Positions 11,485-58,389 are shown, counted from the stretch's first letter. The stretch is 58,389 bases of DNA from Candidatus Doudnabacteria bacterium (GCA_963788395.1 CAWBGV010000022.1:1-58389); one strand, 5' to 3'. A program made the numbers and translations. The notes: generated by a model from the sequence alone, not told the origin.

Positions 11485-12732
11485 CTAAGGTACAAATTGT
11501 GGCGCGGGGTTTTCAAAAATTACTGACCCGACCGGTTGCGGTTGGTCGTCATTGGGCGGCGTCGCGCTGGCATTATCCGGAGTTTGCGAGGCTTCTCCGG
11601 CATTTGGATTAATAGTTTGCGTTTGGATACCACTCGCCGTGGATACTGGCGACGGGGCGGGCGAAATAGTTACCGGCGTTGCGGTGGAACTGCTGGCGCT
11701 TGTAGCCGTAGGAATATTACTGAGCGAAGGGTAAATACTGACCTGTAAGGCCATTAAAACATTGTTTTGCAGAGCTCCAACTACCGTGGCCTGTTCGCCA
11801 ACCAGAGAGCTTAAGTCGGGCGGGGTGGTGGTGTCTTCATTTAGAACAGAAGTATTAGCCGAAAGGAAAAATTGAGTTTTCTCTATGGTCAGAGAATTTT
11901 GATTAGCCTGAGTAATAGTGCCGGAGACTGTCACCGAATTGGGGTTTTGCGTTAAGTTGGTCAAGTTTTCGTCCCTATCGATAGTCGCCACTTCCATAAT
12001 CCTTTCAATTTCATTAACTTGAGTGGCCGTACTCTGAGCGCTGGCCAGAGCCGTTTGGGTAGCGGGGCTGGATGAGCCGCTCTGGGTTTTAACCTGCGCT
12101 GCCAAAACCTGTTGCTGTTGGGTCAGGCTTTGTAAAGAAGCCAGCAGCGGGGGATTATTGCCCTGTAATGAGTTGGTTGATGCGGCATCTTTGACCACGC
12201 TGACAGCGGCCGCGGTTTGGTCGGAGACCTCATTGACTGCGGCGGCGACCTGCGCGGGGTTTGTATCCGGACTGTTAATGACTTGCTCAGCCTCGTTTAA
12301 CCGCTCCTGGGCAATTGCTAATTGCAAATTGGCCCGGGCAGCCGGATTTGTCGTTAAAGCGACTTGAATTTTTTGCGCCTCTTTCTTTAAGGAAAATAAA
12401 ACTTGTCCCGGTAAAGAGACTGACGCGGCATAGGCTGTTCCGGCCAGACCGGCTATGAGCAACATTAAGGCTACGCTAATGTTCAAAGCGCGGGAAAAAT
12501 GCAGCCAGGTAAACCACATTCCGGTTCTGATTTTAGCCGCCGCGTATTTGCGCTGCATCAGAGGACGCGGCACCGGGTTGGTGGGGATGGAAGCTATTTG
12601 GGAACTGATGGTTAAAAGACCCCGCAATTCTGCTTCATGGCCGGGCCATTGCGAAACTATCTGGTCAATACTGTGGCCAGCTTTTAATTGCGCGAGTGCC
12701 TGATCGAAAATGTCTTCGAGTTGACGTACCAT
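11485..12732 (-). CDS. DUF5667-type membrane protein, putative anti-sigma factor
   Basis: Short helical N-terminal domain, one TM helix, SLPG..LF.LK..(E/Q) signature, long S/T/P/Q tail; directly downstream of an ECF sigma. Confidence 0.75.
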   Translation of the reverse strand: MVRQLEDIFDQALAQLKAGHSIDQIVSQWPGHEAELRGLLTISSQIASIPTNPVPRPLMQRKYAAAKIRTGMWFTWLHFSRALNISVALMLLIAGLAGTAYAASVSLPGQVLFSLKKEAQKIQVALTTNPAARANLQLAIAQERLNEAEQVINSPDTNPAQVAAAVNEVSDQTAAAVSVVKDAASTNSLQGNNPPLLASLQSLTQQQQVLAAQVKTQSGSSSPATQTALASAQSTATQVNEIERIMEVATIDRDENLTNLTQNPNSVTVSGTITQANQNSLTIEKTQFFLSANTSVLNEDTTTPPDLSSLVGEQATVVGALQNNVLMALQVSIYPSLSNIPTATSASSSTATPVTISPAPSPVSTASGIQTQTINPNAGEASQTPDNASATPPNDDQPQPVGSVIFENPAPQFVP

Positions 12733-12769: not shown

Positions 12770-13357
12770 CTAAATTGTATTGCCTTTAATTAACTCTTGC
12801 AGTTTTTGAATGGCTCGGTGCTGGATTACGCGAATGGCGCCTTCGGTTTTGTCGAGGATCGCCGCAATTTCCGGATTATCTAGATTTTCCAAAAATTTGA
12901 GTTTAATCACCAATTGCTGTTCGTCAGTCAGTTGTTTGAGGTATTTAAGAAATATTTTTTGCTGCTCCTGAAGACTTAAGACATCTATAATATTGCTTTC
13001 GTACTCCAGAGTGTTTTCAACCTCATCTAAGGCGATGATCATCTTTTTCTCACGGTAGTAGTCTATTACCGTATTTCGCGCAATTTGGTAAAGCCAGCCT
13101 TCAAACGAGCTGTTGTTGGATACTGAACTAATCTTGGCAAAAGCTTTTACAAAAACGTCTTCGGTTAAATCTTCCGCCACTTCTTTGTGGCCGACACGAT
13201 AGAAAATGAACCGGTAGATTTTCTTAAAATACCAATCATACAGCTCAGCCAGCGAGTCCTGCTGGCCGGCCTTGGCCTTGGTAATCAAAGATTCTAAAAT
13301 ATCCTTGAATTCCGAAGGATTTTGCGAACTAAAAGTATAGACGGGATTTATTTCCAT
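12770..13357 (-). CDS. ECF RNA polymerase sigma factor
   Basis: Region 2 (AEDLTEDVFVKAF, WLYQIARN) and region 4 (EIAAILDKTEGAIRVIQHRA). Confidence 0.95.
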   Translation of the reverse strand: MEINPVYTFSSQNPSEFKDILESLITKAKAGQQDSLAELYDWYFKKIYRFIFYRVGHKEVAEDLTEDVFVKAFAKISSVSNNSSFEGWLYQIARNTVIDYYREKKMIIALDEVENTLEYESNIIDVLSLQEQQKIFLKYLKQLTDEQQLVIKLKFLENLDNPEIAAILDKTEGAIRVIQHRAIQKLQELIKGNTI

Positions 13358-13725: not shown

Positions 13726-15701
13726 ATGTTTAAATCTCAAAAAAAGAAATTTGCAATTTTTGTAAATCAAAAAACAGCTGTCCCCGCCACAGTGGGGATG
13801 AAGACGCCGGCATTCTCGTTCTCTTACATCAAAGGACGTCCAACTTTGATGAAAGGATTGTTGGCTTTGGTTATGGTTGGACTAAGCTTTGCTCCCTTTG
13901 GGCTGTTGCAAAAGACAGTATTTAAGGAAACTCCGACCATCTCGATAGTCAGCGCTTCGGGAGACAGCGATGTAGATGTCTGGTGGCCGACTGACGGCGC
14001 CGTAGTTTCCGGCACCCAGCCGTTTAAGGCTATGCTTACTGACCTGTCCATTGACCAATACACCATGTACTGGCAGGTGGATGGCGGCCAATTAAATTTG
14101 ATGCCTGATAACTTTACGAACTCTCCCCACAAGGAAGCTTCGGTAGATTTAAGCGGTTGGACCTGGCATGGCAGCGGGCCATATACCATTGGATTTGTAG
14201 CCAAAGATACGAGCGGCCAAACCATCGCTCAAAAAACTTTGGTCATTAATATCAATTCCGGGACTTCGTCTTCAAGCCAACAACCAGCCCCGGCAGCCGC
14301 TTCGGCTTCACCGGCGGTGGCCTTGATCTCTGATGTTACCACAACGGCCACGGCTCAGCCTGCGGTTGCAGAGAGCGGGTCTGAAACAGCTACCAACGCG
14401 GCCAGTCAACCTACTCCTACGCCCACGCCATTGGGGAATAGTAAGCTGGATGTCTGGTGGCCGACTGACGGCGCCGTAGTTTCCGGCACCCAGCCTTTTA
14501 AAGTGGTACTGGAAAATGCGGACGTAAACGATTATACCGCGTTTTGGCAGGTGGATAATGGTGATATCAATAGCATGCCAACGAATACCACAGATAGTCC
14601 GCACAAAGAGGCTTCGGTGGGAGTATCTAAATGGAATTGGAACGGAAGCGGAGTATACCGTTACATTCATTGCCCGGAACAGCATGGGCATAGAAGTTGG
14701 AGTCAGTTCCGTTAAAATTTATGTGCAAAGTTCCGGAGGGGATTCCCAGACCGTAACACCTGCGGCTGCGAGCGTTTCGGCTGCGCCAAATGTTTCGGCA
14801 GTCCCGGCCGCCGCCCAAAGCAATTCTGGCGATATGTTTGCTGGGCCGCGCTGTATGTTAATCCCAATTCTGCCGCTGCGCAGCAAGTTAATACTTGGGC
14901 TGCCAGCGATCCCAGCGACGCGGAGCTGATGAAAAAAGTTGCCGAAGGCGCCGAAACTGAATGGTTTGGAGATTGGAACAGCGACGTCCAATCCGACGCC
15001 AATAACACTGTTACCACTATTAACGATCAAGGCGACTTGCCCGTGCTTGTAGCTTACAATTTACCTGACCGCGATTGCGGAGGATATTCATCGGGCGGGG
15101 CTAATTCTCCGGATGAATATGATCTTGGATTCGTCAGTTGGCCGCGGGTATTGGTCACCGGAAAGCCGTGGTAATTTTAGAACCCGACGGAATAGCGCTG
15201 ACCGATTGTTTATCATCTTCAGACTTGCAGACTCGGTACGGGTTACTGAAAGACGCGGTCTCAGTGTTTAAGGCCAATGGGCAGGCGGTTTATATTGACG
15301 CCGGCCATCCTGATTGGATAGATGCTTCCGATATGGCCAATCGCTTAGAGCAAGCCGGGATAAGCCAGGCTGATGGTTTTGCCTTGAACATTTCTAACTT
15401 TTATACGACCCAGGATAATATTAGTTATGGGCAGGCGATATCGAGTTTGGTCGGCGGAAAACATTTTGTCATCGATACCGGCCGGAATGGAAATGGCCCG
15501 GCGCCTGATGATGCCTGGTGCAACCCTTCCGGACGGGCATTAGGCCAATTACCCACAGTCAACACCGGTAATCCTTTGGTTGACGCTTACTTGTGGGTCA
15601 AAGGTCCCGGCGGCAGCGACGGCACCTGCAACGGCGGCCCCAGCGCCGGCACCTTCTGGGCCTCGTACGCCCTGAGCTTAGCCCGCGGCGCGAGCTGGTG
15701 A
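13726..15701 (+). CDS. membrane-anchored glycoside hydrolase family 6 (endoglucanase/cellulase) with two Ig-like repeats; frameshifted
   Basis: Fragments 13726-14715, 14558-14929, 14929-15174 and 15138-15701. GH6 motifs YNLPDRDC, LEPD, YIDAGH, NISNF, VIDTGRNG, WCNP, WVKGPGGSDG. Confidence 0.9.
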
Positions 15702-15704
15702 ACG

Positions 15705-15905
15705 GGGAAGTAAGTAGTGGGTAGGCTACGGAAAATTATACTAACTGTACTAATTATTCTCCGCCAAAGGCGAATCTGCCTCTGGCATGATAAGTACCCT
15801 AAATAATGTCCAAAACCCAATTTGGGAATTTCTAAATTAGACATTTGTGCTTATTTAGAATAATTTATCCCCCGCCTACCAATTACTCACTACCAACTAC
15901 CCCCC
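15705..15905. repeat. intergenic low-complexity inverted repeat with embedded CCGCC/GGCG palindrome between convergent genes
   Basis: AAGTAAGTAGTGGGTAGG ... CCTACCAATTACTCACTACC; CCGCCAAAGGCGAATCTGCCTCTGGCA inside. Confidence 0.55.
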
Positions 15906-15907
15906 GC

Positions 15908-16732
15908 CTACCTATACCCCTTCCTCTCCCAAAGCCAATAATATCCAAACAACTCTCTAAAGGCATTGGCGATTACCGCTATTTTTGCTCCGGTTTGTTT
16001 GCCGGTTTTGCGGGGAAAGTGATGGACGCCGATTTCGGCAATTTTAAAACCGTTTTTTTGGGCTTTGACCAGCAACTCGGTAGAAATCAGGGCTCCGCTG
16101 CTTTGCAGCGTAAAATGCTCAAACAATTCGCGGCGGACTATTTTAAACGCGCAATCAATATCGCGGACGTTTTTTAGTCCAAATAAATTTTTGACCAGCG
16201 TTCCCCAGGCCCAGGCGTTGAATTTGCGGAAGAGCGGATCAGCGCGTTGAATGCGGTAGCCGGCAATAATATCAAAGTGGGGCATCAGTGGCAACAGCCG
16301 CTGGATTTCGGTCACGTCGAACTGGCCGTCGCTGTCGGTAAAAAATATCCAATCCAGAGTAGCAGCCTGGAAACCGGTATTGACTGCGGCCCCATACCCC
16401 AGGTTTTTGGAATGGTTAATCAGCTTGAGTCGGGGATTATCGCGCCGCAGCTCAGCCACGATTGTGGCCGTAGCGTCAGTACTGCCATCATTCACCACTA
16501 TAATTTCGTAACTGCCGGCCACGCGTTCTAGCACCTCGGTTAAACGATAGATTACTTCGGGCAAATTGGTTCCCTCATTGTAGGCCGGTAAAAAGGCCGA
16601 GATATTTGGCCGATACCCGCTGGGAAACGGATAGCTTGCGCTGGCAGTTTGGCGTCCGGAAAATATATCTGGATTAAATGCTAATTCAGAATTTTCGGAA
16701 AAAGTCAGGTATGATTTTTTGGGGTCTAGCAT
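15908..16732 (-). CDS. GT2 polyprenyl-phosphate glycosyltransferase (DPM1/GtrB/ArnC-like)
   Basis: LPAYNE, VNDGSTD, NLGYGAAV, FTDSDGQ and DIDCAFK motifs. Confidence 0.9.
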   Translation of the reverse strand: MLDPKKSYLTFSENSELAFNPDIFSGRQTASASYPFPSGYRPNISAFLPAYNEGTNLPEVIYRLTEVLERVAGSYEIIVVNDGSTDATATIVAELRRDNPRLKLINHSKNLGYGAAVNTGFQAATLDWIFFTDSDGQFDVTEIQRLLPLMPHFDIIAGYRIQRADPLFRKFNAWAWGTLVKNLFGLKNVRDIDCAFKIVRRELFEHFTLQSSGALISTELLVKAQKNGFKIAEIGVHHFPRKTGKQTGAKIAVIANAFRELFGYYWLWERKGYR

Positions 16733-16782
16733 AAGGTCCTTTCCATTAGTTAGGGGGAGGGATTTCCTAATCCCTCTTTTTT

Positions 16783-18326
16783 CTAATATCTCAATTTATA
16801 TTCATAGACATTCAAATCATCGGAAAAATTTTGGGAAGCTAGAAGCTGAAAATGATCGTCAAAATATTGTTTTATATCTTGCTCATACCCTTGGTTATAA
16901 CTGAGAATGATGTAGGCATTTTGATAGCTGCTCTCCAGGGAATTGGCTTCACTAACTAAACCTTGTTCGGTAAAAGGCGGCAGGGACCGGTTGGCCAGTT
17001 GGTCCCACTCCGGCGCGGTAATTAGCAGGGCCGGTTAGTTTATAGTAGTATTCAATGGGGTAGATAGTGAATGGCGCAGACACTACTATGGCGTCTTGCG
17101 CTGTCGCGTGAGCGTTAAGATAATCAGTAGCCCCTTCATAATTTTCTTTAATCGGGCTGCTGGCGCTGACCCCTTGATACCAAAGCGTGGCAACCATGCC
17201 GGCTACAAATAAGACTTTTAATGTCGTGGCTAACTGAGGCGGGTAGGTCGAGAAGATCCAGGTAATAAATAAATAGAGCGCGGGGATAGTAAAAATGAGA
17301 TAGCGGGTCACAGTAGAGCGGCCGCCAGGTCACGCTCACCACAAAGGCCAGAAGAATCGGCAGGAACGCGGCCAGAAAAAAATAAACTGTATCCGGTGAT
17401 ATTTTTCGGGTTTTGCTTAAGGTTAAGAATCCCAGCAGGACGGAAAGCGGCCACAGCGACACAATAATGGTGTTGAGGTGGTCATTTTGGAAACCAAAAA
17501 AGAATTCGGAAAAGCTGTTAAATAAATCTACGGTTGAAGGCCTGTCCAAGGCCGGCGAACTGCCGCCATTAATGCCGCTTAAGTGAGGGCCCTGAACTTT
17601 AAAGACCAGCCAGACCCAGGGGGCAAAGGCAATCGCCAGGACTACGGCCAGCGTGGTGAGTTTTAAAAACGTGCCTTTGGGGAACAAATCAGAACGTAAA
17701 AAAAAGAAAATCGCCTGAGTCAGTAAGACGAAGAAAAAGAAATAATGAGTGTAAATGCCAACCAGCGAACTCAGGCTGTAGCCGACCCAGGCTCCCGGCG
17801 TCCGTTTTTTATAGAGCGACAAAAAGTAATATTGGTTGACTACGGCCACCAAGGTCATTAAGCTGTACATCTTAATCTCATTGCCGTACCAATTTAAGAA
17901 GGGTGATACCGCTACCAGGATAGCCGCGAACAGGCCGGCTGGCCGGCCATAGGCCAGTTTGCCCAAAGCGTACATGGCCGGAATAGTGGCTAAGAAAAAT
18001 ATCAGCGACATGATCCGGGCCGAGGCTACGCCGTTGCCAAACTCCCACTGCCAAAAGTGGAGCATGGTGTTATAGAGTGGAACATGGACGTCGTCCGCCA
18101 CAATCTGCAGGGCCCGGACAAAACCCGGGCTGCTTTGCCACAGGCTCTGGGCTTCATCCAACCGCAGGCTTTGGTGGGAAAATAAAAATACGGAAGCCAA
18201 AACAACCCCCAGCATTAAGCCGCCTAAAATTAAAATTGTCGAAAGAGCAGTACTTTTACTTTTTGCGCGCGCCTTCGGCTCAGTAAAATTTATCGGTTGG
18301 GGAAGCGCGGCTGTCGTTGTTGCCAT
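16783..18326 (-). CDS. GT-C fold integral membrane glycosyltransferase (GT39/ArnT/PMT-like); frameshifted
   Basis: LRLDEAQS, DVHVPLY, many TM helices, E.KMYSL. Fragments 17148-18326 and 16952-17311; manual continuation ends ..YEYKLRY* at 16783. Confidence 0.85.
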
Positions 18327-18388
18327 AGTCTAAGGGTTAGGATAAAAGGGGTATGGGGCTGTGAGTCAGCTGATTAGCTGCATAGCTC

Positions 18389-19971
18389 TCATTGCAGTGT
18401 TTGACGTGATGCGGCGCGCGTCATGACAGGGTAATTGGCCGGAATTAAGTCGGCTTCCGGTAATTGCTGGGTTTTGGCGGCTGCTGTTTCCGGCCTGGCT
18501 CCCATGGGCGAGGCGGCTATAATAAAGGGATAAAATATTGCAGCGTTAAAGAGAGCCCAAGAAAGGTTGGCAATAACCGCAGCGCTGACTCCCTCGCGTA
18601 AAACAGCTACTCCCACGCCGACCACCAGCAGCACAAAGTACAGCATATGAGGAGTAACCAAGTATAAAAAATTTCCGCTTAATTGCTGCTTGGAAGTCAC
18701 ATTAAAAGTACTTTTTTTGCCGGTCAGCACAGCCCAGAGTGCCTGAATCTGTAAAGAAAAAGATCCCATAGAAAACGACAGCGCGCGGAAGGTGTACGAA
18801 GCGTTGCTGGACAGCCAGAGGGTCACGATATTCATAAAAATATAAGGTAAGAACACCGCGGCCAGGGCCATTGTTGAAACGTTCACCGGAACTTTCCCCG
18901 TGAAGAAAAAGATAATCGGCAGAAGCGCGTTCATCAGCACAATCAAGCCGGAAAAGTAGTAACTGGAAGAAGCCAGATATTGAATTCTCTGAGCCAGGGT
19001 CAAGCCTTTTTGGAAAAAAGGATTATATTTAAACATTACTTCCAAGCTGCCGCGGGCCCAGCGGAATTGTTGTTTGTAATAGGAACTGAAATCTTCCGGC
19101 GCCAAGCCTTCGGCTAAAACTTCGGGCACGTAGACCGACTTCCAACCTTTTTTATGGATGAACAGAGAAGTTAAAAAATCTTCGGCGATATTGGTTTCAC
19201 ACATCCCCCCGACGTCTGCCAGAGCCTGGCGGTTGAGCACCATATTGGTGCCGCACATGAAGGTGGCGTTTAATCTATTTTTTCCTTTACAAATAGCGCC
19301 AAAAAATAATTCCTGCTGTTCCCAAGCGCCGCCGGTGATTTCGTTATACCTAAAATTTTTATAATATTGTGGGGATTGCACAAAAGCCATGCGGCGATCG
19401 GTAAAGTATGGAACGGTTTTTTAAAAAGTCCGGATGAGGCGCCTGGTCCGCATCAAATATCGCCACCAGCGGGCTGTGGGTCAGGGCGAGGGCGTGATTA
19501 ATATTGCCGGCTTTGGCTCCCTGGTTGGTGGTGCGGGTAATGCAGCCTATGCCCAGTTGCCGGGCAAATTCCTGAATTTCTTGCCAGTTATCTTTTTTTG
19601 CGGCATACCCGTCGTTTAATAAATAAATGCGGGGCTTGGGGATAATTCATGTGCAAGGCAGCCAAAGCAGTTTGCCTGACAATTTCGACCGGCTCTCCGG
19701 CCACGGTAATAAACACGTCCACCACCGGCCGCAGAAGCGGATCAACGGGAAACGTCGAATTGGTGTTCCAAATTGTGTACAAGTATCCCAAGACCTGCCA
19801 AAGGTGAAAAACTTCCCCGGCCATCAATAAATAGAAGAGCGGCGCGTAGCCTTTTGGGAACCAAAAGGCCAACAGGAAAAAATAAACAATCGCCATAATG
19901 GCAGTCGTGGCTAAAAAGCGTTTGGCAATATTTGTTTGAAGAAAATCGGTTTGGGGATCGGAGATGTCCAT
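18389..19971 (-). CDS. cellulose synthase catalytic subunit-like GT2 (BcsA/CslA-like), no PilZ domain; frameshifted
   Basis: DVFIT.AGEP, KAGNIN, FDAD, FVQSPQ, AED, QQFRWARG (QxxRW) and C-terminal TM helices. About 525 aa in total. Confidence 0.9.
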
Positions 19972-20012
19972 AATTTAAAATCTAAATTGCAAATTGAAAA
20001 ATATTAGTTTTT

Positions 20013-21263
20013 TTAATCTTCATTTAAGAATGAAGTCGGAGACGAACTGGGGGAGATTGACGGTGTTGGCTGGTACAAATTCGGCAGTTGATTGTTATAG
20101 AGCGCCATTCCGAACCAAGCCCAGTTGTCGTCGTAGTAACTCATTGCCTGTTTCCATGATTCTGTATCCGGGCTAAACAATGTTTCCAGTTTATTTTTAT
20201 AAACGTTGGCGGCCTGGCTGGAGTCGGCATCAATAAAGTATCCGATCGTGCCGCCATACATGGCCGGCGCTTCCAGATCAGAAACAACGCTGCCATCATG
20301 GCCATAGGTCACGTCTAATTTTTGGTTAGCTTGCCACTGCTGGCCCAAAAAACCCATATCATCCAATAATTGAAGATCTTGTGAATCATGATTCCAGGCG
20401 TAGTCGAGGGCCAGACGGAAGGGAACGCGGAGAGCGTCGTATCCAAAATCGGTGGTGGTGGAAGCGTTGGATGAATTAGGGGCTTCCAACTGCCCGGTTT
20501 GGCGGTCGAGAGCCACCCAATCCGGCGGGATATTAGCGCTGGTAGTTTTATCGAGCGGGTAGGCCATGCTTTGCTGAATAATACTGTAGGAGCTTTGCAC
20601 CAGCGCGTTCCAGTCGTGGGCGGAGTCAACTTGGGCGAAAATTCGGTAACTGTAGGGAGCTAAATAGGAGGGGTCGATTAAAACCGTTGTCGATGAATTT
20701 TTTTCCAGATTATCGGCCACCAAATAGGGGACGTTGTTGACGGCCACAACTTCGTCAGCCCAAATATCACTTATAATATTTTTGGCCGCCGCCGCGTAAC
20801 TGGGGTCTTGCCAGCGGCTGGAGGCAAACAACAAAGCCAGGGCGATATCGCTATCGGCATCGGCCGCGGAATTTTGGCCGTTTTGGTCGGTTAAAATACC
20901 GGTAGTGCCATCGCTCCGGGTGCCATAGAGCCAGGCGAATAAGTGGTCGTTGGTATGCTGGAGATTGGCCTGAGTCCAGCTCCAGGTTTTATCGAACGTC
21001 GGCTTATCATTTTCCCAGACGGCCCGCAGCATGGTATAGCTCTGGCCTTCTGAGGTGGTAATATTGTTGCTCTGTTTGTCTATGGTTCGGCCGGTAGTGG
21101 CATCCCAGTAGACGTTTTTGTACACGCCCCACAGCGCCTGGAGCATAAATGGGGGAGAAAATATTACGGGTTGCTCGCTCTTTTTGCTGTTGCGATAGGC
21201 TACTGAGGCAAAAATTACAATGGCCAACAAAATCAGAAAAGCGCCAAATATTTTTATTTTCAT
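20013..21263 (-). CDS. glycoside hydrolase family 8 endoglucanase (BcsZ-like), N-terminally anchored
   Basis: TTSEGQSY, AADADSDIA, DPSYLAP and YDALRVPFR motifs. Confidence 0.92.
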   Translation of the reverse strand: MKIKIFGAFLILLAIVIFASVAYRNSKKSEQPVIFSPPFMLQALWGVYKNVYWDATTGRTIDKQSNNITTSEGQSYTMLRAVWENDKPTFDKTWSWTQANLQHTNDHLFAWLYGTRSDGTTGILTDQNGQNSAADADSDIALALLFASSRWQDPSYAAAAKNIISDIWADEVVAVNNVPYLVADNLEKNSSTTVLIDPSYLAPYSYRIFAQVDSAHDWNALVQSSYSIIQQSMAYPLDKTTSANIPPDWVALDRQTGQLEAPNSSNASTTTDFGYDALRVPFRLALDYAWNHDSQDLQLLDDMGFLGQQWQANQKLDVTYGHDGSVVSDLEAPAMYGGTIGYFIDADSSQAANVYKNKLETLFSPDTESWKQAMSYYDDNWAWFGMALYNNQLPNLYQPTPSISPSSSPTSFLNED

Positions 21264-21277
21264 GAACGCTTTGGCGG

Positions 21278-22074
21278 TTAATTTTCAAATGAGTATGCTC
21301 TCGATTCGGAAGTGGTACGGTTTTTGCGCAAGAGGTTTTTTACCCGCTTGTAGTTGTAGAGAAGCAGGCCGCTGAGGAGCAAAAGGAAAGCCAAAAGATT
21401 AAGCTCCAGCGTAGCGAGAGGGCTCAAAAAATTGTTTACGTAGGGGGAATAAGTCAGGAGCGGTTCCCATAAGCTCAAGAGCGGTACAAAAACATTTTGT
21501 GTTGCGGCCGAGACGACTGTTTGGGTAACAGTTTTGGGCAGGGAAAAATTAAAGGCCAGTTGGGCGTTTTTAGGAGTGGTCCGGGCGGGAGTGATGGGCA
21601 CGGAAGGGACAGATTCCACGGTGGGGCCGGAGTCGGCATGGGTGGGTCTGCGGCTACAACAGAAGTATTAGGGTCACTGAGCAAGCTTTGGGTGGTAATG
21701 ATTTGGGGCATGCTTAATCCGGTCGGAGTGGGCGTAGGGTTTACTGCGGCTTGAGCCGTAGAATCCGGTGTTTGGTCTTGGGAAGTCTGGGTAGCTCCCG
21801 AATCTGAACCCGCGGGCTGGCTGGCTCCGGTGATAGTTAGGGTGGTAGATGTAGCTGGCAGCGTAGTTAATTGAGCCGGCACGGCGCTGATATCGGCGAC
21901 TGTAATGGCATTTTTCTCGGTTTGAGCGGCGCTATAATTGTGCGAGCTTTTTTTAGGTTGCTCATACTTTGGGTTCTTGGTTTTGGCCAAGACTGGGGAG
22001 CTCATACAAAAAAGCGCCAGGCATATTCCGGTTACAATAATCTGAGAAAATCTTTTGTATTTAAGAGTACGCAT
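21278..22074 (-). CDS. hypothetical secreted/membrane protein with S/T/P/Q-rich region and C-terminal TM; probably one frameshifted gene
   Basis: Fragments 21475-22074 (signal-peptide-like start) and 21278-21619 (TM then basic tail). Confidence 0.55.
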
Positions 22075-22169: not shown

Positions 22170-22206
22170 AAAAAAACCCGCTTGCGGACGAGCCGCAAGC
22201 GGGTTT
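22170..22206 (-). terminator. strong rho-independent terminator downstream of tRNA-Ser(GCT) and its 3' element
   Basis: AAACCCGCTTGCGG-loop-CCGCAAGCGGGTTT, U7 on the minus strand. Confidence 0.85.
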
Positions 22207-22598: not shown

Positions 22599-22968
22599 AT
22601 GTGGAATGCAGATAAAAATTTATCAGAAGAAGAACGCGAGGTTATGCGCGAGTATGAATATCTTTACTTCATGTACAACCCTGGCTTTCGGGCAATGTGG
22701 CGGGATAATTTTAAAGAATACTTTAACGGAACATTTGACGAGAGATATTGGGAGCAGAGGGAGTGAGAACATGAGAAAGAAGTACTTCATCAAATCGAAT
22801 ATAACATGCGGAGTGACCCTGAATATGCGAGCCGAATGGCGGAAATGCCAATTATAGAGGAAACGTTATTGGGTGACCCGAATGAATCATATATTGCTGG
22901 AAGCCGTTGGTTTGAACGGGAACAGATGTTAAAAGAAATTGAAAATAAAGGTAGAAGCAGAATCGTTT
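22599..22968 (+). CDS. hypothetical acidic protein (frameshifted; end uncertain)
   Basis: Manual translation MWNADKNLSEEEREVMREYEYLYF.. continuing in another frame ..HQIEYNMRSDPEYASRMAEMP.. Confidence 0.4.
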
Positions 22969-23268
22969 GATACCGCCAATAATTTTCGATGAAGGACCGA
23001 TCGCATTGGGTTTATCTTGTCCCTTGCTTCATTACAACGTTGTTTGGAGTCCTTGCGCCGACTTCAAGAAAAACCCAGGCTATACACGTGCAGCCTTTTA
23101 TTGATCAAGCGCTTCTTATTCAAACTGCTCTTATTGAAAATTTAGAGGCCATTAATAGTCAATTCCCAACCCGAGTCTTCCTATATTTGAAATAATAAAT
23201 TATTTCAGAATATTTTTTTCTCCCAAACTTTCACAATTGTGAAAGTTTGGGAGAAAAAGCACATCGTA

Positions 23269-51655: not shown

Positions 51656-52715
51656 CATCCCTGATAATCGGGCGTTCTCCACAATTCGCCAGCCTCGGCA
51701 ATCTCCATCAACCGCTGGGTCTGATTCTTGGCTTCCTTCTTGTTGTTGACGACGGGTGCGGCACCCTTGGCAGCAATGTCCTTTGCGAGTTGTTCCACGG
51801 CTGGCGAAACGCCCAAGAATAAAACTCATCTCGATCCAAAGCCTTGGCGATCACCTGACCTCGGTAGTCATCCCAATCCCATTTGTCCCGATACAGCCCC
51901 GACTGCCGAAACATTTCATCCAGCAGGTCTTCATTGGAGCCGACGTAGAAGGCCAGCATCGACGCCAGGGCAAGGTCGGCTTCACTTTGGCTGTTGTAAT
52001 CACCCTCCCAATCGCCCTTCCAGAGCTTGGTGAACTTGCCGCCATTTCTCGCTGCCATCGCCCTTTCAAGGATGGTTTCCATCGAGGGCGAAGCGGATTG
52101 TGGGGGCTGAGCTTGCGGCTTGCGGTCTTCTTCCTCACCGAATACCTGCTCGTACAGCCGCTCCAATTCAACCTGCCGTGGCTCTATGGTCGTCGGCGTT
52201 CCGTCCAAATGCCAGCCGGTAACGGTCAAATATCTTGGGCTGTTGCAGTCGTAGATTTCGATGTCGCCCTTGCGGCGATTGCTCCCCTTGGGTTGTGGCT
52301 GCCCTTTGCAGAAAATTCGGATGCCAGTTCCACTCGGAGAAATCTCCGTGTAGCTGCCCAGCAGGTCGATGATCTTCGTTGCCCATTCAGCGATTTCACC
52401 CGTTCCAGCATCTCGGCAGCCGTCAAGATCAACGCCGATCAGGTCATCCCGAAGGATGAATCCCAAACCGTGGCTGCCGCCGTCGTCAACAAAATCTTGG
52501 TAGAACGTGCAAGCCGTGCCAAAATCTGCCCAGGTAGTCGGCTCCGTCGTGCTGGCATTCGTGCCGGTCATTGGGCAGATGGGGATTTTCGTGAACGGCT
52601 TCTTCGGTGGCTTGCCGTTGGTCTGTTCAACTTTCTTCAACAGCCAGCATACCCACTGGTTGCGTGTCTTCAATTCGTTCGGAATACAATCATAACGTGG
52701 TCGTAGTACATTCAT
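51656..52715 (-). CDS. NrS-1-type primase-polymerase with helix-bundle domain, C-terminally truncated
   Basis: IPNELK.RNQWVCW, GVDLDGC, YTEISPSGTGIRIF, EIYD..RYLTVTG, SQSEADLAL..LAFY, MFRQSGLYRDKW. Continues after a frameshift (..QRLMEIAEAGELWRTPD) up to the junction. Confidence 0.85.
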
Positions 52716-52866
52716 TTGTCCCTCGATTGTTAGTCTTGATGGTCAATGGCGTCCTGCCTCAGTCCCTGGTATTACCGGGCTGGGAACCACCCTGCAACCA
52801 GCAAGGTGGCCCCGCCCAGACAACCGAGGGACTAACTCGTTGTTTCTTATCCTGGCAGCAGCCTCA

Positions 52867-53073
52867 TCAGAGTATCTCCCAAGCGGCAATGTTTTCCTCG
52901 GCAAGGGTATCCAGCGATGCGTCCGGGTTTCTTTGGGCCAGTCGTCGCAACGTAGAGATGTTGTCAGCATCCTGCCACAGAATCATACCGCCAGCTTTCC
53001 TCGATTTGTCCAACTTGCGTAAGGCCGCCTTGCAGGCCGCCCATGTCGGTTCTTCTCTCATTTCAGTTTTCAT
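52867..53073 (-). CDS. small hypothetical protein
   Basis: 68-aa ORF overlapping the stop of the HTH gene. Confidence 0.55.
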   Translation of the reverse strand: MKTEMREEPTWAACKAALRKLDKSRKAGGMILWQDADNISTLRRLAQRNPDASLDTLAEENIAAWEIL

Positions 53074-53302
53074 GATTATTCTCCGTCTTGTCTAAAATAG
53101 TTTCCTGTCCTGGCAGCAGCCCCTGGTCGGCAAACCAATGCCGCAGAGCATCGAGTTTCTTCTCCGACCAAAGTGGGCTGTGCTGCCCAATCGGCTGGCA
53201 TTCGTAGGGCAGATTGCCTTCCCGCAGGTGCCAGTATAATTTGCGGTAGGTCACGCCAAGTGCCGTAGCCGCTTGATTCATCGTGTAGTAATTTGTTGCC
53301 AT
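53063..53302 (-). CDS. small helix-turn-helix DNA-binding protein (excisionase/MerR-like)
   Basis: YYTMNQAATALGVTYRKLYWHLREG HTH pattern, upstream of a replication gene. Confidence 0.75.
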   Translation of the reverse strand: MATNYYTMNQAATALGVTYRKLYWHLREGNLPYECQPIGQHSPLWSEKKLDALRHWFADQGLLPGQETILDKTENNHEN

Positions 53303-53379
53303 ACATTAGATAGAGTAATTCCCCGAAAAAAATCTCGGACAATCCGCAATTATTTTCGGGGGTGAATATACATCTCCTA

Positions 53380-53700
53380 CTACGTGTCCAACGAATCTTC
53401 CCACGTCGAGCCCAAGACCCAGGACAATGCGGATAGTTTGCCACTCAACAGACCCCATTCAAAGTCGTCCCAGCCGAGGTTCTTCTTGCCGTACTTCTTC
53501 TCAATCCGACGTGCGGCTTTGTTCGCCCTGGCAAGGGTCGGCTTTTTGTCTTTGGTCAACGTTTCCTCTCCAGTCTTGATCCGGTGCAGCCAGTTTTGGT
53601 GCCGGTTCCACCACACCTTGTCGTGGAGTTCCCGATAGGCTTCAAAAATGTCGTTTTCATTGCGGCAAGACTCGATCTGCGATTCATCAGTATTCTTCAT
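53380..53700 (-). CDS. hypothetical protein resembling the C-terminal helical domain of PIN-like (DUF4935-type) proteins
   Basis: [46 protein letters not shown]; start at MKNTDE. Family resemblance from memory. Confidence 0.6.
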
Positions 53701-54417
53701 AATTTGTTTCCTTTTTGTTGAATTACGCACTAACAGAGTAACGACCGAGGAAATTGTCCAACCAAACGATGGCGGGACATCACCACGGTCGAGTCCCAGC
53801 CGACCGCTCCGTGCGGCCACCGAGGTTGGGCCAGAAAGGCCAGACGCTTGCGGCTTCGTGCCGCCCGCCAGTTAGAAAGTTGAGATAGTTATGAAGTTGT
53901 TATCGTTGTGATTAAAATATACCAAAAAATAGAGACAATTGCAAGACGAAAAAACATTTTGTGCGGCGGTTTTCACGAGTGTAGTATACCGCCGTCCACT
54001 TTCGTGAATTATTGCGAAACGGTTCTACATTTTTTATTTTTGCTTTCGTCGGCGGCTGCTGAGCTATTTCCTGGTCTTGAGCGTGATATTGCTTTGCGGT
54101 CGGCGGTGGCGGTGGGTGTGCTTGTCTAGAGCCGGGGAAAAGGTAGCCAAAGTATTTTGCTACCTTTTGGGACGGGCGAAGAGCCGCTCGGAAGCAACGT
54201 CAGGCGACGGACATCACACCAGGATCAGCGGCGTGCGGACGGAAATGGCATCAACTGGCGAAGGGCAACAACTCGCTGCAAACGAGGATTTTGCAACCAG
54301 TTGGCTGGGCAACTGGTCAATTGACAAGTTCGCCTCGGCGGAAAGGTTCACTCTGAACCTTTTGCCGCCAGCTATGCCACCATCCGACAGATTCATCCGA
54401 TGGCGGCACTCGGCGGC

Positions 54418-55672
54418 TCATTCCTTCCAGAACACCACGTTGTATTCGTCGTTCGCCACGCCACCGAAGCCTTTGCCGAGCAGCGTATTGCCTCCGCCTC
54501 TGTCCACTCGCACAGAGGCGGTCATGGCGGCTGCCGTGGCGACAATCGTCTCAGGCTTCACGATCCAGACGCCCCACTGCCACGAGTTGTCATAGACCTT
54601 GACCTTGCCCCCTTCCAGATTGACGACCACGCTGTGCGTCATATTGGGACTGAAGCGGACGGCATCGGTGGCGGCATCGACCGAACGCACATGCTGCCAG
54701 GGCTTGCCGCCTCCCATTGCTGCGGCATAAGGCGTCCAGATGATGACCGGCCCTTTTTCCAGCCGAGCAAGGAGTTTCTTGACCAGCTTCGCCTTCTCAC
54801 CCTGCTCGTATCGAACGATCATTTCCCTACCCTGCGGCGTCAGGATCGCCTTCGGTTTCAACGAGAATCGTTCAGCCTTCAAGTCAGTTACGGGATGCCC
54901 ATTCCATTGGATTGTTCCGGCTTGGGCCATGTAGCTGGTCCACGGAGCCCAGCCGTAGTATCCTCCCAGCCCGGATTTCTCCAGAGCCGCAACGAAGACC
55001 CGTTTCTCGAAGGAATCCCGCTGATCGTTCCAGCCCTCAACGCCGTAGTAGTGGTCGAGAACGGTGGCGAATGCGTTGTAGGAGCACTGACTCGAACCGC
55101 CCCTCCCAGAACAAGGCGTGCTCGGCCTTGGGGCTTGAGAAGCGAACCTCCACAGGGCCGCCGAAAGCAACCTCCACCTCGGCTTCATACAGCCAGTAAT
55201 GGGTCCGTAATTTCCCGGCCCGCCACTCAACCGTGTTGTCGCCCTTCTGGAGCTTGTCGCCCAATGACCAGCGGTTCTCGCAACGCTTCCCCTGGCCGAC
55301 GTTCCACTCTTCGACCAGCGGTTTGCCATTGATGATGATGGAAACCGGGGAGACGCATTTTCCTTCGTTATCGGCACTGGCAAGATGTTCGACGTTCAGA
55401 AAAGCCGCTTTGGGAACTTCGGGAAGATTGAACTTCATCGCAAAGCGGCTCTTCTCGCCGGTGGTCAGGCGAAGATGAGGATGCCTGTCAAAAGCGATGG
55501 AGCAGTCGCACGCCGTGGTGGAAAACTCAATGTTGGCCTTTGGAGGGTATTGCGTAAAGTCGCACTGGAAGACAACGACCGGGTGGCCATCCCAGTCAAA
55601 ATGGTTGGGCTGTTTATCGACATCCCCCTGAGCCGCAGCCATCGCGAGCAGCAAGATCATCGGAAAGTGCAT
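54418..55672 (-). CDS. secreted protein: beta-sandwich domain plus papain-like (C39-like) cysteine peptidase; frameshift near 55100
   Basis: Signal peptide MHFPMILLLAMAAAQ; QCSYNAFATVL (Cys), THSVVV (His), VYDNSW (Asp). Confidence 0.6.
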
Positions 55673-55774
55673 GCGGTCTAGCCGTGGGAAGAGGAATTGG
55701 CGTAGAATTCTGGGTGTGCAAGATGACTTACGTATTCGGCGGGCAATGGAGAAACGAGCCGACAGCAATCTTCT

Positions 55775-56861
55775 CTACGCTCGTCTCTGCTCGAACATCT
55801 TCAGTGCCACGGCGTACTCGTTCGAGAGATCGAAGCTGGCAGCACATTCCGGGGCGATTCGCTTGAAGCCCACGTACATGATGCTCACCATTTGCAGCCC
55901 GCTGAACTTGCCGGGCATCGACCGAAGCTGATACTGTTGAACAGGATCGTTGATCTCGAACCCCTTCGTGCCGAGCATACCGATCTCGAACGTGATCCTT
56001 TGCACTTCTTCGTCGGACAGAGTCGCAAAATGTTCCAAGGCCGAAAGGCAGTACATCACGGCGTCAGGGCGACCCGTTGTACCGCCCTTCATCATGAAGC
56101 CGACACGGGCGAGGGCTGACAACTGTTGTTTTGCCAGCTTGGCCATGTCATTGAACTCGTCAATGGCCACCACCTGCCGGTAAGCCGTGTCGGCATCTTC
56201 GAGCCGCTCGGCAACCCGATACGCCTCACCCAATCCGAAAAACGCTTGCTGGTCTTTGGGATTCAGTTGGGTCGCCCGCAGAAGGCAGGAGATGGCACGG
56301 TCAACTTCCCTCAAGGCAAGCAGGCAGCCGCCGAGGTTGCGTTGTGCCCAAGGATTGTTCGGTTCGGCGGAAGCCGCCTCCTCCAATATCTTCACCGCTT
56401 CCTGGTTGTTGCCTTCCTTGGCATAGGTGACTCCCAAGGCAACACGGGAATCGACGTGGCGGGGATGAAACCGAATCGACTCGTTCAGTATCGCCTTGGC
56501 TTCATCCAGCCGACCGAAGTTGCTGTAGGCCAACCCCAGGTTGTAGAGAAGCCGAAGATCATTGGGGTGTCTTTCCCGCAGAAGCTCCAGCATCACGATG
56601 GCAGGGATCATTTCCCCGCTTTCCAGTTTTATCACCGCCGCTTCAATCGGGTCTTTCACGGACGGCGGCGGTGTCCATTCCACAAGAATGGAATCTTCGG
56701 ACACCACGATGCGTGCGTCACCCTGGAAGCCCGCAAACTGTTTCTTGCAGAAAGTGGTGGACGGCTGCGGCAAAGTCCTTCGATCCCTTGGCGGGAGAGC
56801 CAGACGGCAGCAGCGAAGCATCGAAGGTTTGCAGCGGGATGTTGAAGTTGTATTCGGCCAT
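55775..56861 (-). CDS. tetratricopeptide-repeat protein with a conserved C-terminal domain (frameshift near 56750)
   Basis: About four TPRs (LYNLG.AY, RVALG.TY, QRNLGGCL, FFGLG.AY); true start probably MAEYNFNIP at 56861. Confidence 0.85.
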
Positions 56862-56870
56862 GAAGGAATC

Positions 56871-57650
56871 CTATGCGTGCTGCGGGCCTGGATAAGGCAC
56901 CCAAACATACCCGTTGGTCAACTTCAATTCCGCTCCCCACGCATCAATCAACGCTTTGTCCGTCCTGCCTGAATCCGGCAGATCATGGAGGATCTTCAGC
57001 AGCTTCTCACCAGCCGCCGCATAGCCACTGGCCTTGTAGGGCAACGCCAGTTCGGGCTGGCTCCACTTCTCGGCCCAGAACTGAGCGAAGGCCGCATTGA
57101 TTGCCATTGTGGCATCGAAGACTTGCGGAGGACACACACTGCGGAACTTCTCGCCGGTTGAGCCGCTGTTCTCTTGGAGTTGGGGCTGAATGGCAGCCCG
57201 CTGCATTTCCAAGAGTTCGGGATGTTCGTTGAAAATCCAGTTGTCGAGTCGCAGCCCGAGCGGAATGGAACGCAAGTGGGTCATAATTCCGTTGAGCAGT
57301 TGCTCGCACATGGCGAAGATGGCAGCGTCGTTCAGCCGCTTGAAGCTGGGCATACGTTCGAGCATCTTGCGAAACTGATAGCGTCCTTTTTCCCCCACGC
57401 CGAAGAAGAATCGCTCTTCGGGCGGGTTCTCGAAGAACCGCTGGATCATACCGCAGTAGTAGACAATATAATAATCGACGGCAGCCGGGGCCTTCGGGTG
57501 GATGCGAACAATATGGCCGGGGCGATCTGAAGTCGCCATCAGGACGCCCGACATCATCGTGAGGCTGGCATCGACCGTCACGACGACTTGGCAGCCGGTC
57601 GCCTGCTCCGTCTCGGCCATCAGCTTTCGAGTTGTGCCTCGCAGTTCCAC
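56871..57650 (-). CDS. hypothetical protein, operonic partner of the TPR gene
   Basis: 259-aa ORF ending 9 nt before the TPR start; globular composition. Confidence 0.8.
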   Translation of the reverse strand: MELRGTTRKLMAETEQATGCQVVVTVDASLTMMSGVLMATSDRPGHIVRIHPKAPAAVDYYIVYYCGMIQRFFENPPEERFFFGVGEKGRYQFRKMLERMPSFKRLNDAAIFAMCEQLLNGIMTHLRSIPLGLRLDNWIFNEHPELLEMQRAAIQPQLQENSGSTGEKFRSVCPPQVFDATMAINAAFAQFWAEKWSQPELALPYKASGYAAAGEKLLKILHDLPDSGRTDKALIDAWGAELKLTNGYVWVPYPGPQHA

Positions 57651-57814
57651 TTCATGCTCCGGTGCTGGGGATCGACCAGCGAATCAGAAACCCCCATTTT
57701 ACCGTTTCGGAGAAAACCTACAAGCGACCGTTCTCTGACGGGCTGGGGCAGGTTGGCGTTGTGGTTGCGTGTCTCAAAAGGCCCAGGATATATCCCGCCC
57801 AATGTACAGGAAAA

Positions 57815-58389
57815 CTATCGTGCGGCGACGGTGGCTTTCCGTTTTTCCACGGTTTGCCTTTCCGAATCCATCGCAGTGGCGAGCCTGTTCAGGAAAACGT
57901 GATCGCCGGTCTGCTGTGCGAATTCGTAGGCGAGTTCTTTGATGCCCCGAATTTCCTGCTTTATTAAATAAGCACTTGGCGTGCCAAAGTCGGCCTTTCC
58001 CACCAAGTCTTTGGAATCCTCGCCAGTCAACCGTGCGTCAAGGATCGCCGCCGCCAGCTTCCCCAGCCTTTGGGCAACGAGGCTGCGAAACTGGTCAATC
58101 AAGTCTGAATAGGGCTGCCGCCCCGCATACTGGGCTGCCATGACGCTAGGATCGGCGGCGACCATCCATCGTCGTCGGTTCCGGGTCTTCTCTTGGGCGT
58201 TCCTGATGCCGTTCCAAACGCTTCGGCGGAAACGGTTCTGAAGAGGGCCGTGCCTTTGCGGTTCCCACCCTCGGAACAGCCGACCTGGGGAGACGAGCAA
58301 TTTGACGACAAGCTGGTGGAAGTGCTCCTGAACGTCGTCATCCTTGAATCCCGAGCGTTGAAGCGATCTTACGACATAATTTGCCCAGT
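57815..58389 (-). CDS. ECF-sigma-like protein, partial (5' end outside window)
   Basis: Frame open to window edge: ..DDDVQEHFHQLVVKLL..RFRRSVWNGIRN (region 2-like) and AAILDARLTGEDSKDL (region 4-like). Confidence 0.5.
   Translation of the reverse strand, partial: WANYVVRSLQRSGFKDDDVQEHFHQLVVKLLVSPGRLFRGWEPQRHGPLQNRFRRSVWNGIRNAQEKTRNRRRWMVAADPSVMAAQYAGRQPYSDLIDQFRSLVAQRLGKLAAAILDARLTGEDSKDLVGKADFGTPSAYLIKQEIRGIKELAYEFAQQTGDHVFLNRLATAMDSERQTVEKRKATVAAR

Follow-up and report, generated by a model that had tools for sequence, protein, structure and literature searches.

A conserved Patescibacteria gene cassette that may build a cellulose-like surface polymer through a PilZ-less BcsA-type synthase and a GT-C glycosyltransferase

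A BcsB-type partner and, in most cases, cyclic di-GMP (c-di-GMP) are regarded as requirements of bacterial cellulose synthesis. The 58,389-nucleotide contig of Candidatus Doudnabacteria bacterium analysed here (GCA_963788395.1, CAWBGV010000022.1; contig C22 of the source bin, hereafter the window) raises the question of what a BcsA-like synthase makes, and with which partner, when it is encoded among glycosyltransferases (GT) and glycoside hydrolases (GH) that include no BcsB or BcsC. The answer favoured here, on which belief and doubt stand evenly balanced, is that the cluster at 13726-22074 represents a conserved Patescibacteria cassette for a cellulose-like surface polymer, which would be synthase-dependent, would work without PilZ, BcsB and BcsC, and would have its chain decorated by a GT-C enzyme. 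All six genes that the initial annotation of the window placed in this interval are present at their coordinates and on their strands, as judged from open reading frames (ORFs), Pfam and NCBIfam. The GH6 gene, on the plus strand, converges with five minus-strand genes for a small protein, GH8, the synthase, the GT-C and a GT2:

21278-22074, minus strand: Pro/Thr/Ser-rich small secreted protein, about 264 residues when read through, with a frameshift near 21619
20013-21263, minus strand: GH8 endoglucanase, BcsZ-like (PF01270, E 5e-40), intact, with an N-terminal membrane anchor or signal
18389-19971, minus strand: BcsA-like processive GT2 synthase, about 526 residues when read through, with frameshifts near 19629 and 19418
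about 16783-18326, minus strand: ArnT-like GT-C (PF13231, PMT_2), about 510 residues when read through, with frameshifts near 17312 and 17020
15908-16732, minus strand: polyprenyl-phosphate-type GT2 (ArnC/DPM1/GtrB-like; PF00535, E 4e-30), 274 residues, intact
13726-15701, plus strand: GH6 endoglucanase-type hydrolase (PF01341, E 3.7e-42), about 655 residues when read through, with frameshifts near 14653, 14848 and 15124

By sequence and by fold the synthase sides with the processive BcsA enzymes and not with the non-processive GT2s. The NCBIfam model TIGR03030 (CelA) scores 299 bits against 68 bits for PgaC, and the score is 204 bits with R. sphaeroides BcsA, 193 bits with E. coli BcsA and about 55 bits with plant CesA. 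The NCBIfam scores lie below the curated cut-offs (299 versus 699 bits for TIGR03030 and 230 versus 992 for NF008558). The N-terminal half of an orthologous synthase-GT-C fusion model superposes on E. coli BcsA with a root-mean-square deviation of 3.2 Å over about 510 columns. The D,D,D,QxxRW signature initially reported for the enzyme is borne out, with the motifs NDG, DAD, AED and QQFRW aligning to BcsA D180, D246/D248, E342/D343 and Q379-W383, except that the first D lies in NDG and not in DDG. Residues D126, D179/D181, E270/D271, Q307, Q308, R310 and W311 are invariant in an alignment of 22 synthase sequences, as is the Asn (N125) that takes the place of the first Asp of DDG, and a gating loop of the FxVTxK type, FNVTSK, is also present. 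The predicted product, deduced from the closest relatives and from the GH8 and GH6 neighbours, is a β-1,4-glucan built from nucleotide sugar, UDP-glucose in BcsA-type enzymes.

Only residues 54-584 of BcsA are covered by the alignment, the end of which coincides with the start of PilZ. No PF07238 (PilZ) match occurs in the synthase fragments or in more than 2000 relatives of 500-550 residues (57-67% identity; search of 5.8 billion proteins), the few named members of which belong to Patescibacteria groups. In the synthase tree the PilZ-bearing BcsA homologues fall outside a well-supported clade of synthases from the candidate phyla radiation (CPR); the window synthase is sister to P0001, from locus L001 of the same family. 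Thus the lack of PilZ, which had been claimed from the window alone and is shared by intact orthologues, is a family trait and no truncation artefact.

Independence of the synthase from c-di-GMP is plausible on this basis, but the flat statement of it in the initial annotation goes beyond the data, as two GGDEF proteins encoded on contigs of normal composition leave regulation in trans possible. The accompanying parallel with a Streptomyces CslA devoid of PilZ conflicts with the literature, in which CslA carries PilZ elements and CslA-GlxA is stimulated by c-di-GMP (PMC11022532). The only solid PilZ match of the genome sits, with an elongation factor P-like gene, in the foreign-looking half (GC content 0.58) of the chimeric contig C23. 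This gene was considered as a trans-acting c-di-GMP receptor and dropped because of its location.

The initial annotation was also right that BcsB, BcsC and BcsG are missing from the cluster, every ORF of which is otherwise accounted for, no genome-wide search for BcsC having been made; PF03170 (BcsB) has no match in the whole genome, which is 77% complete. Pfam and NCBIfam scans likewise revealed no GlxA-like radical copper oxidase ORF in the cluster. The CPR-like label given to the genome is correct, with ClpB 72-86% identical to its counterpart in most members of the same GTDB family and with related loci titled Paceibacteria, Parcubacteria or Patescibacteria in their records. The data therefore support a BcsA-like system of monoderm type that does without PilZ and BcsB and is encoded in a genome of the CPR.

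The GT-C is tied to this synthase by three independent lines of evidence, namely phylogenetic profile, gene fusion and structure prediction. Neighbourhoods were surveyed in one scan of species-representative genomes, 483 of which hold a relative; the best 80 loci together with L001-L003 gave 81 distinct loci, several of the shortest being whole short contigs and 41 having full flanks. Neighbouring genes were classed against reference proteins. The GT-C stands beside the synthase in all 81 loci, either directly after it or on its GH8 side, between the two genes. Of 61 genomes of the same family, seven have a strong synthase orthologue, and strong GT-C orthologues occur in the six other synthase-bearing genomes of the family, adjacent to the synthase wherever coordinates were compared. 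One further GT-C orthologue is a truncated ORF in a family genome that has no synthase match. A separate and distant housekeeping GT-C paralogue is encoded in nearly every one of the 61 genomes.

The two enzymes also occur as a single chain. Locus L055 contains an ORF of 995 residues comprising synthase and GT-C, and fusions of about 1000 residues form at least nine protein clusters (eight full-length, at 42-100% identity, and one distant), the contigs that encode them reaching 1.17 Mb in length. No catalytic residue varies among the fusions in either half, and in the synthase tree they occupy at least three distinct positions. A fusion model has a mean predicted local distance difference test (pLDDT) score of 91.8 and a predicted template-modelling score (pTM) of 0.86, only a five-residue linker being uncertain, and hints that the two membrane domains pack together in a defined way. 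A cytoplasmic C-terminus of the synthase and a cytoplasmic N-terminus of the GT-C would make the fusion topologically sensible.

The window GT-C matches its orthologues in L001 and L003 over three frames (tblastn) and scores only 37 bits against PMT_2. A profile search against PDB sequences gave no match, and relatives emerged by fold comparison alone. The model of an orthologue (pLDDT 89.9) has ArnT (5EZM) as its top fold match, with a template-modelling score of 0.54, and the Pmt4 and Pmt1/2 structures rank below it. The protein displays an LDE motif in the first outside loop, right after the first transmembrane (TM) helix, and a C-terminal α/β domain. Residues L55, D56 and E57 are invariant across 40 orthologues, as are many others, and because the Leu-Asp-Glu loop is invariant the GT-C is predicted to be, probably, an active transferase.

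The sugar donor of such a transferase would come from the neighbouring GT2. Its NCBIfam matches, all under cut-off, are ArnC, PgfS, AglJ, dolichyl-phosphate hexose transferase and PpgS, the ArnC/DPM1 type being best, and the window protein has neither a predicted TM segment nor a GtrA domain. An orthologous GT2 lies near the cassette in 29 of the 81 loci and in 19 of the 41 with full flanks. The expectation that both transferase genes accompany the synthase in other genomes thus holds fully for the GT-C and only loosely for the GT2. Many of the neighbouring GT2s are about 375 residues long, and both of those scanned (375-378 residues) are fusions to the PF04138 GtrA flippase domain. In the genome studied here, GtrA matches are located on contigs C31 and C35. 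At the edge of the former (C31:2-1067) a second GT2 is paired with a GtrA-like small membrane protein, a candidate flippase for the system of this genome, and the pair is homologous to one flanking the cassette in L030, L037, L042, L043 and L068. Two further proteins, P0129 (665 residues) and P0158 (1293 residues), join a BcsA-like synthase to a GtrA/DPMS TM domain (PF04138) and represent a second fusion type linking the synthase to lipid-linked sugar handling.

The constancy of the GT-C, set against a GT2 found nearby in only about half of the loci, can be read in a different way, which is considered unlikely here. The GT-C would then be no glucan decorator but the obligatory second membrane partner of the synthase, the counterpart of BcsB, CcsB or GlxA, either stabilising the channel or transferring or anchoring the chain end to lipid, wall or the small protein, with the GT2 loosely connected. 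Known systems pair the synthase with a non-homologous second membrane partner, and every characterised bacterial system needs one as a TM anchor supporting the synthase (PMC11022532); no BcsB was found in this genome, and the fusions and the high pTM fit a structural role equally well. A purely structural partner, however, sits poorly with the Leu-Asp-Glu loop and the many other residues invariant in 40 orthologues and in all fusions, which argue for an active transferase, and with the GT2-GtrA and synthase-GtrA fusions, which link a supply of lipid-linked sugar to the cassette.

A transferase acting on proteins is the other possibility raised by these data. The GT2 and GT-C would carry out protein O-glycosylation of the Ppm1/Pmt or PgfS/PgfM type, directed at the Ser/Thr/Pro linkers of GH6, GH8 and the small protein. 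The PMT_2 match of the GT-C, the presence of PgfS among the GT2 matches and of Pmt4 and Pmt1/2 among the fold matches, and the Ser/Thr/Pro-rich stretches of all three secreted cluster proteins are consistent with this. The best fold match is nevertheless ArnT and not a PMT, the dedicated GT-C is found essentially only with the synthase while a housekeeping paralogue is available in nearly every family genome, and repeated fusion to the synthase is hard to explain with protein targets. Protein O-glycosylation is thus judged improbable, more so than a structural role of the GT-C, and decoration of the glucan by the GT-C is retained as the preferred reading.

The hydrolases bear on the nature of the backbone. 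The best NCBIfam model for GH8 is NF008305 (BcsZ), at 136 bits against a cut-off of 299, and its best PDB matches include 1WZZ and 3QXF, which we take to be the cellulose-operon glucanases CMCax and E. coli BcsZ. GH8 is encoded in 78 of the 81 loci. Clostridial CcsZ, in contrast, belongs to another GH family. The GH6 protein displays an N-terminal hydrophobic anchor or signal, two modules of about 100 residues (13963-14268 and 14437-14740), Ser/Thr/Pro linkers and a catalytic domain for which M. tuberculosis Cel6 (1UOZ) ranks first among the PDB relatives and the endo-1,4-β-D-glucanase E-2 (1TML) next. Counted with queries limited to the catalytic domain, GH6 occurs in 50 of the 81 loci (31 of the 41 with full flanks) and a GH113-like hydrolase in 13 of the 81. 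The roughly 100-residue module, with the pattern DVWWPT...YWQVD...HKEA, has no Pfam match and was seen only in GH6 and GH113-like hydrolases among the loci examined. Elsewhere in the genome, C8:6150-7980 encodes a secreted GH113-like hydrolase (PF22612, E 2e-38), frameshifted, with the same module at its end.

These GH113-like enzymes introduce a further alternative, namely that the architecture is as described and the polymer is not cellulose but another β-1,4-linked glycan, glucomannan- or mannan-like, or a mixed-linkage glucan. Mannanase-family and GDP-mannose-type neighbours hint at mannose in the polymer: GH113-like hydrolases carrying the GH6 module lie near the cassette in the 13 loci mentioned, in L091:1372-15495 a GH113 gene directly follows the fusion gene in the company of GDP-mannose-type nucleotide-sugar genes, and in L092:5650-9635 a GH26 gene abuts the distant fusion. 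The TIGR03030 score of the synthase, well under its cut-off, is also compatible with a different backbone. These hints are set against the closest relatives of the synthase, in both sequence and fold, which are true cellulose synthases, against the BcsZ-type GH8 of nearly all loci and the GH6 of most, and against GH6 itself, whose nearest characterised relatives are β-1,4-glucanases and whose family cleaves β-1,4 bonds (PMC9040799). A non-cellulose backbone is on balance unlikely, if less so than the structural role of the GT-C considered above, and a cellulose-like chain is preferred. The L091 fusion neighbourhood also encodes a second GH8 and a further GT2.

The remaining member of the cluster, the small secreted protein, has no Pfam or NCBIfam match. 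A signal or TM segment at its N-terminus is followed by a Ser/Thr-rich stretch of low complexity and, at the C-terminus, by a conserved Y..LSPxxT motif, a TM helix and a basic tail. In at least 26 distinct related loci the gene immediately upstream of GH8 is of the same build, and the C-terminal motif can be aligned across them. This conserved tail-anchored protein, together with the GtrA domain of many relatives and the GH113-like hydrolase of some, indicates that the term minimal, applied to the cluster at first, undercounts its parts.

Taken together, these components would act as follows. The synthase would polymerise a β-1,4-glucan from nucleotide sugar and translocate it, and the GT-C, docked to the synthase in the membrane, would add a sugar from a polyprenyl-phosphate donor to the emerging chain at the outer face. 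This donor would be made by the cluster GT2 and flipped across the membrane by a domain of the GtrA type, which in relatives forms part of the GT2 chain and in this genome is encoded at another location. The anchored GH8 and the GH6 may serve to trim the polymer, to release it or to clear its way across the wall, in some relatives perhaps with help from a GH113-like enzyme, and the small Ser/Thr-rich protein with its tail anchor may hold the polymer in place or stand in for the BcsB transmembrane anchor. A sugar-decorated glucan, as the initial annotation had it, is a reasonable proposal that the gene fusions strengthen, whereas the roles in release and remodelling and in host attachment that it assigned to the cluster are speculative.

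Several observations weigh against this scheme. Both the product and the GT-C acceptor are predictions, and GT-Cs of the same Pfam family also glycosylate proteins and lipids, while the secreted proteins of the cluster are Ser/Thr/Pro-rich. Only about one locus in two has the GT2 donor synthase within 10 kb, and the window contains no flippase gene. The high pTM obtained for the fusion comes from a prediction in which most alignment rows lack paired co-evolution. β-Mannanase-type genes (GH113 and GH26) and GDP-mannose-type genes adjoin some cassettes, so that the backbone may not be pure glucan. The cassette is patchy, being present in seven of 61 family genomes and missing from G403, of the same genus, and frameshifts are denser in the cluster (eight in 8.3 kb) than elsewhere in the part of the genome that was sampled, with not all of them in homopolymers.

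A bolder form of the proposal is put forward tentatively, with doubt outweighing belief. Synthase and GT-C would constitute one obligate two-enzyme machine, a single polypeptide in several lineages, that couples polymerisation and translocation to immediate glycosylation at the outer face. The machine would define a new class of synthase-dependent system centred, in the genomes sampled, on Patescibacteria, and its product would be a branched β-1,4-glycan new to bacteria, possibly glucomannan-like, with the small protein as a BcsB-type anchor or tether.

Comparison with known systems places the cassette between several of them. Similarly to proteobacterial Bcs (BcsA-BcsB-BcsZ-BcsC, types I-III), it combines a BcsA-fold processive GT2 with QxxRW and FxVTxK motifs and a TM channel with an adjacent BcsZ-type GH8 glucanase. 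In contrast to Bcs it lacks PilZ, BcsB, BcsC and an outer membrane, its synthase has a shorter N-terminal region and the TIGR03030 cut-off is not reached. The best mechanistic analogue of the cassette GT-C is BcsG of the E. coli phosphoethanolamine-cellulose system, which binds to the synthase and acts on the growing chain once this is outside the membrane (PMC11379886), BcsA having been resolved in complex with this modifying enzyme (PMC11379886; PDB 9FMV, 9B8V). BcsG is a phosphoethanolamine transferase, however, while the partner in the cassette is a GT-C that is sometimes covalently fused to the synthase. The Streptomyces CslA-GlxA-CslZ system, with LpmP, resembles the cassette in its monoderm setting, in a synthase that needs a non-homologous membrane-anchored partner and in an adjacent membrane-associated GH6. 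CslZ cuts carboxymethyl cellulose and peptidoglycan and helps the glycan to cross the wall (PMC9040799, PMC11022532), and by analogy the cluster GH6 could also open the wall. The cassette differs from this system in having a GT-C and not a copper radical oxidase as partner, in being PilZ-less, in lacking a lytic polysaccharide monooxygenase and in possessing an extra GH8.

Clostridial CcsA-CcsB-CcsZ is a Gram-positive-type cellulose operon that likewise groups a synthase, a second partner, a glucanase and extracellular modifying enzymes (PMC7710045; PMC8892547). Unlike the cassette, it has a functional BcsB homologue and acyltransferases and no GT-C. The lipid-linked side of the proposal finds its parallel in the three-component systems (GtrA/GtrB/GtrX of O-antigen glucosylation, GacI/J/L, CsbB/YfhO and GT136), in which a polyprenyl-phosphate GT2, a flippase and a GT-C add side-chain sugars outside the membrane to a polysaccharide that is either complete or still growing (PMC11127046). 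The GT2, the GtrA domain of relatives and the GT-C, all in or near the cassette, correspond to these components, no flippase gene lying in the present window. The acceptors of the three-component systems are Wzy-dependent, ABC-dependent or wall polymers, while here the acceptor would be the product of a BcsA-type synthase. No instance of a GT-C fused to the polymerase was found in the literature consulted on these systems.

To our knowledge, the known modifications of cellulose are acetyl and phosphoethanolamine groups. If the proposal is true, the cassette would introduce a novel type of synthase partner and perhaps also a novel, glycosylated polymer of the cellulose-like kind. Ultra-small episymbiotic bacteria, about whose way of attaching little is known, seem on this evidence to possess a dedicated surface structure, for which cells with genomes of about 1 Mb retain six or seven genes. 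Fusions that occur naturally as a single chain are ready targets for cryo-electron microscopy and heterologous expression. Neither 8.4 million full texts nor the main review of Bcs systems, from 2021, yielded a description of the cassette, and full-text searches for BcsA together with GT-C, and for the cassette in CPR, Patescibacteria or Parcubacteria, gave nothing relevant. The cassette is accessory and patchy, though widespread, with strong orthologues in about eight of 401 evenly drawn genomes of the phylum.

The frameshifts of the cluster were hinted at in the initial annotation by its call for polishing. Judged against intact orthologues there are eight of them across four of the six genes (three in GH6, two each in the GT-C and the synthase and one in the small protein), located partly in homopolymers such as T5A6 and several times outside them. 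The source bin comprises 1.29 Mb in 41 contigs, 77% complete and 4% contaminated. Matching 1542 ORFs from related loci to the whole genome by tblastn, in search of colinear matches that change frame, served as a proxy for telling error from decay. The sole matches in the genome to leucyl-tRNA synthetase (LeuRS; C25:48272-51590) and DnaK (C24:11273-13051) change frame at least five times and three times, respectively, and the genes for TypA/BipA (C25:14540-16366) and CTP synthase (C39:2096-3723) do so three times and twice. Since essential genes in one detectable copy cannot be pseudogenes and yet are broken, the assembly contains clustered indel errors. The frameshifts of the cluster are therefore very likely assembly errors, the genes of the organism itself being most likely intact.

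A decaying pseudogene cluster, with real frameshifts and no product, is by the same token very unlikely. It would account for the eight frameshifts in 8.3 kb, several of them outside homopolymers, while ORFs of more than 1000 residues are intact elsewhere in the genome, and it would fit an accessory cassette lost from most family members, including G403. The fragments contain, however, no in-frame stops or deletions, every piece being colinear with intact orthologues, and LeuRS, DnaK, CTP synthase and TypA are broken in the same clustered manner in an assembly that also holds chimeric contigs. The GC content of C23 switches from 0.33 over its first 12 kb to 0.58 over its last 9 kb, and that of the window rises to 0.53-0.57 at 52000-58389; such abrupt changes within a contig suggest chimeric joins or contaminant pieces. 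Statistics of ORF length in 8-kb windows did not single out the cluster region. Owing to the assembly errors the present window is a poor example of the cassette, and arguments from reading frames anywhere in this genome call for care, the indel errors being clustered. A different kind of interruption is seen in L026:2195-7832, where LeuRS is apparently split into ORFs of 1046 and 383 residues, with several NUDIX-domain matches between the catalytic N-terminal part and the editing domain.

The following features flank the cluster, the first of them resting on a promoter and terminator scan that is weak evidence:

22174-22206, minus strand: strong terminator-like hairpin after tRNA-Ser(GCT)
12770-13357, minus strand: extracytoplasmic function (ECF)-type sigma factor, divergent from GH6
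11485-12732, minus strand: DUF5667/DUF5666 single-TM protein, divergent from GH6

A promoter-like site from the same scan (22129-22101) immediately precedes the first gene of the cluster; this too is weak evidence, the counts of promoter and terminator sites in the cluster region not exceeding the shuffled expectation. At least four related loci (L001, L003, L006 and L009) retain the pair of ECF sigma factor and DUF5667 protein next to GH6. On the other side of the cluster, beyond tRNA-Ser(GCT), the plus-strand interval 22599-23085 contains a homologue of a 250-residue protein, broken over two frames and inverted. Its counterpart in L003 lies two genes upstream of GH8, on the strand of the synthase.

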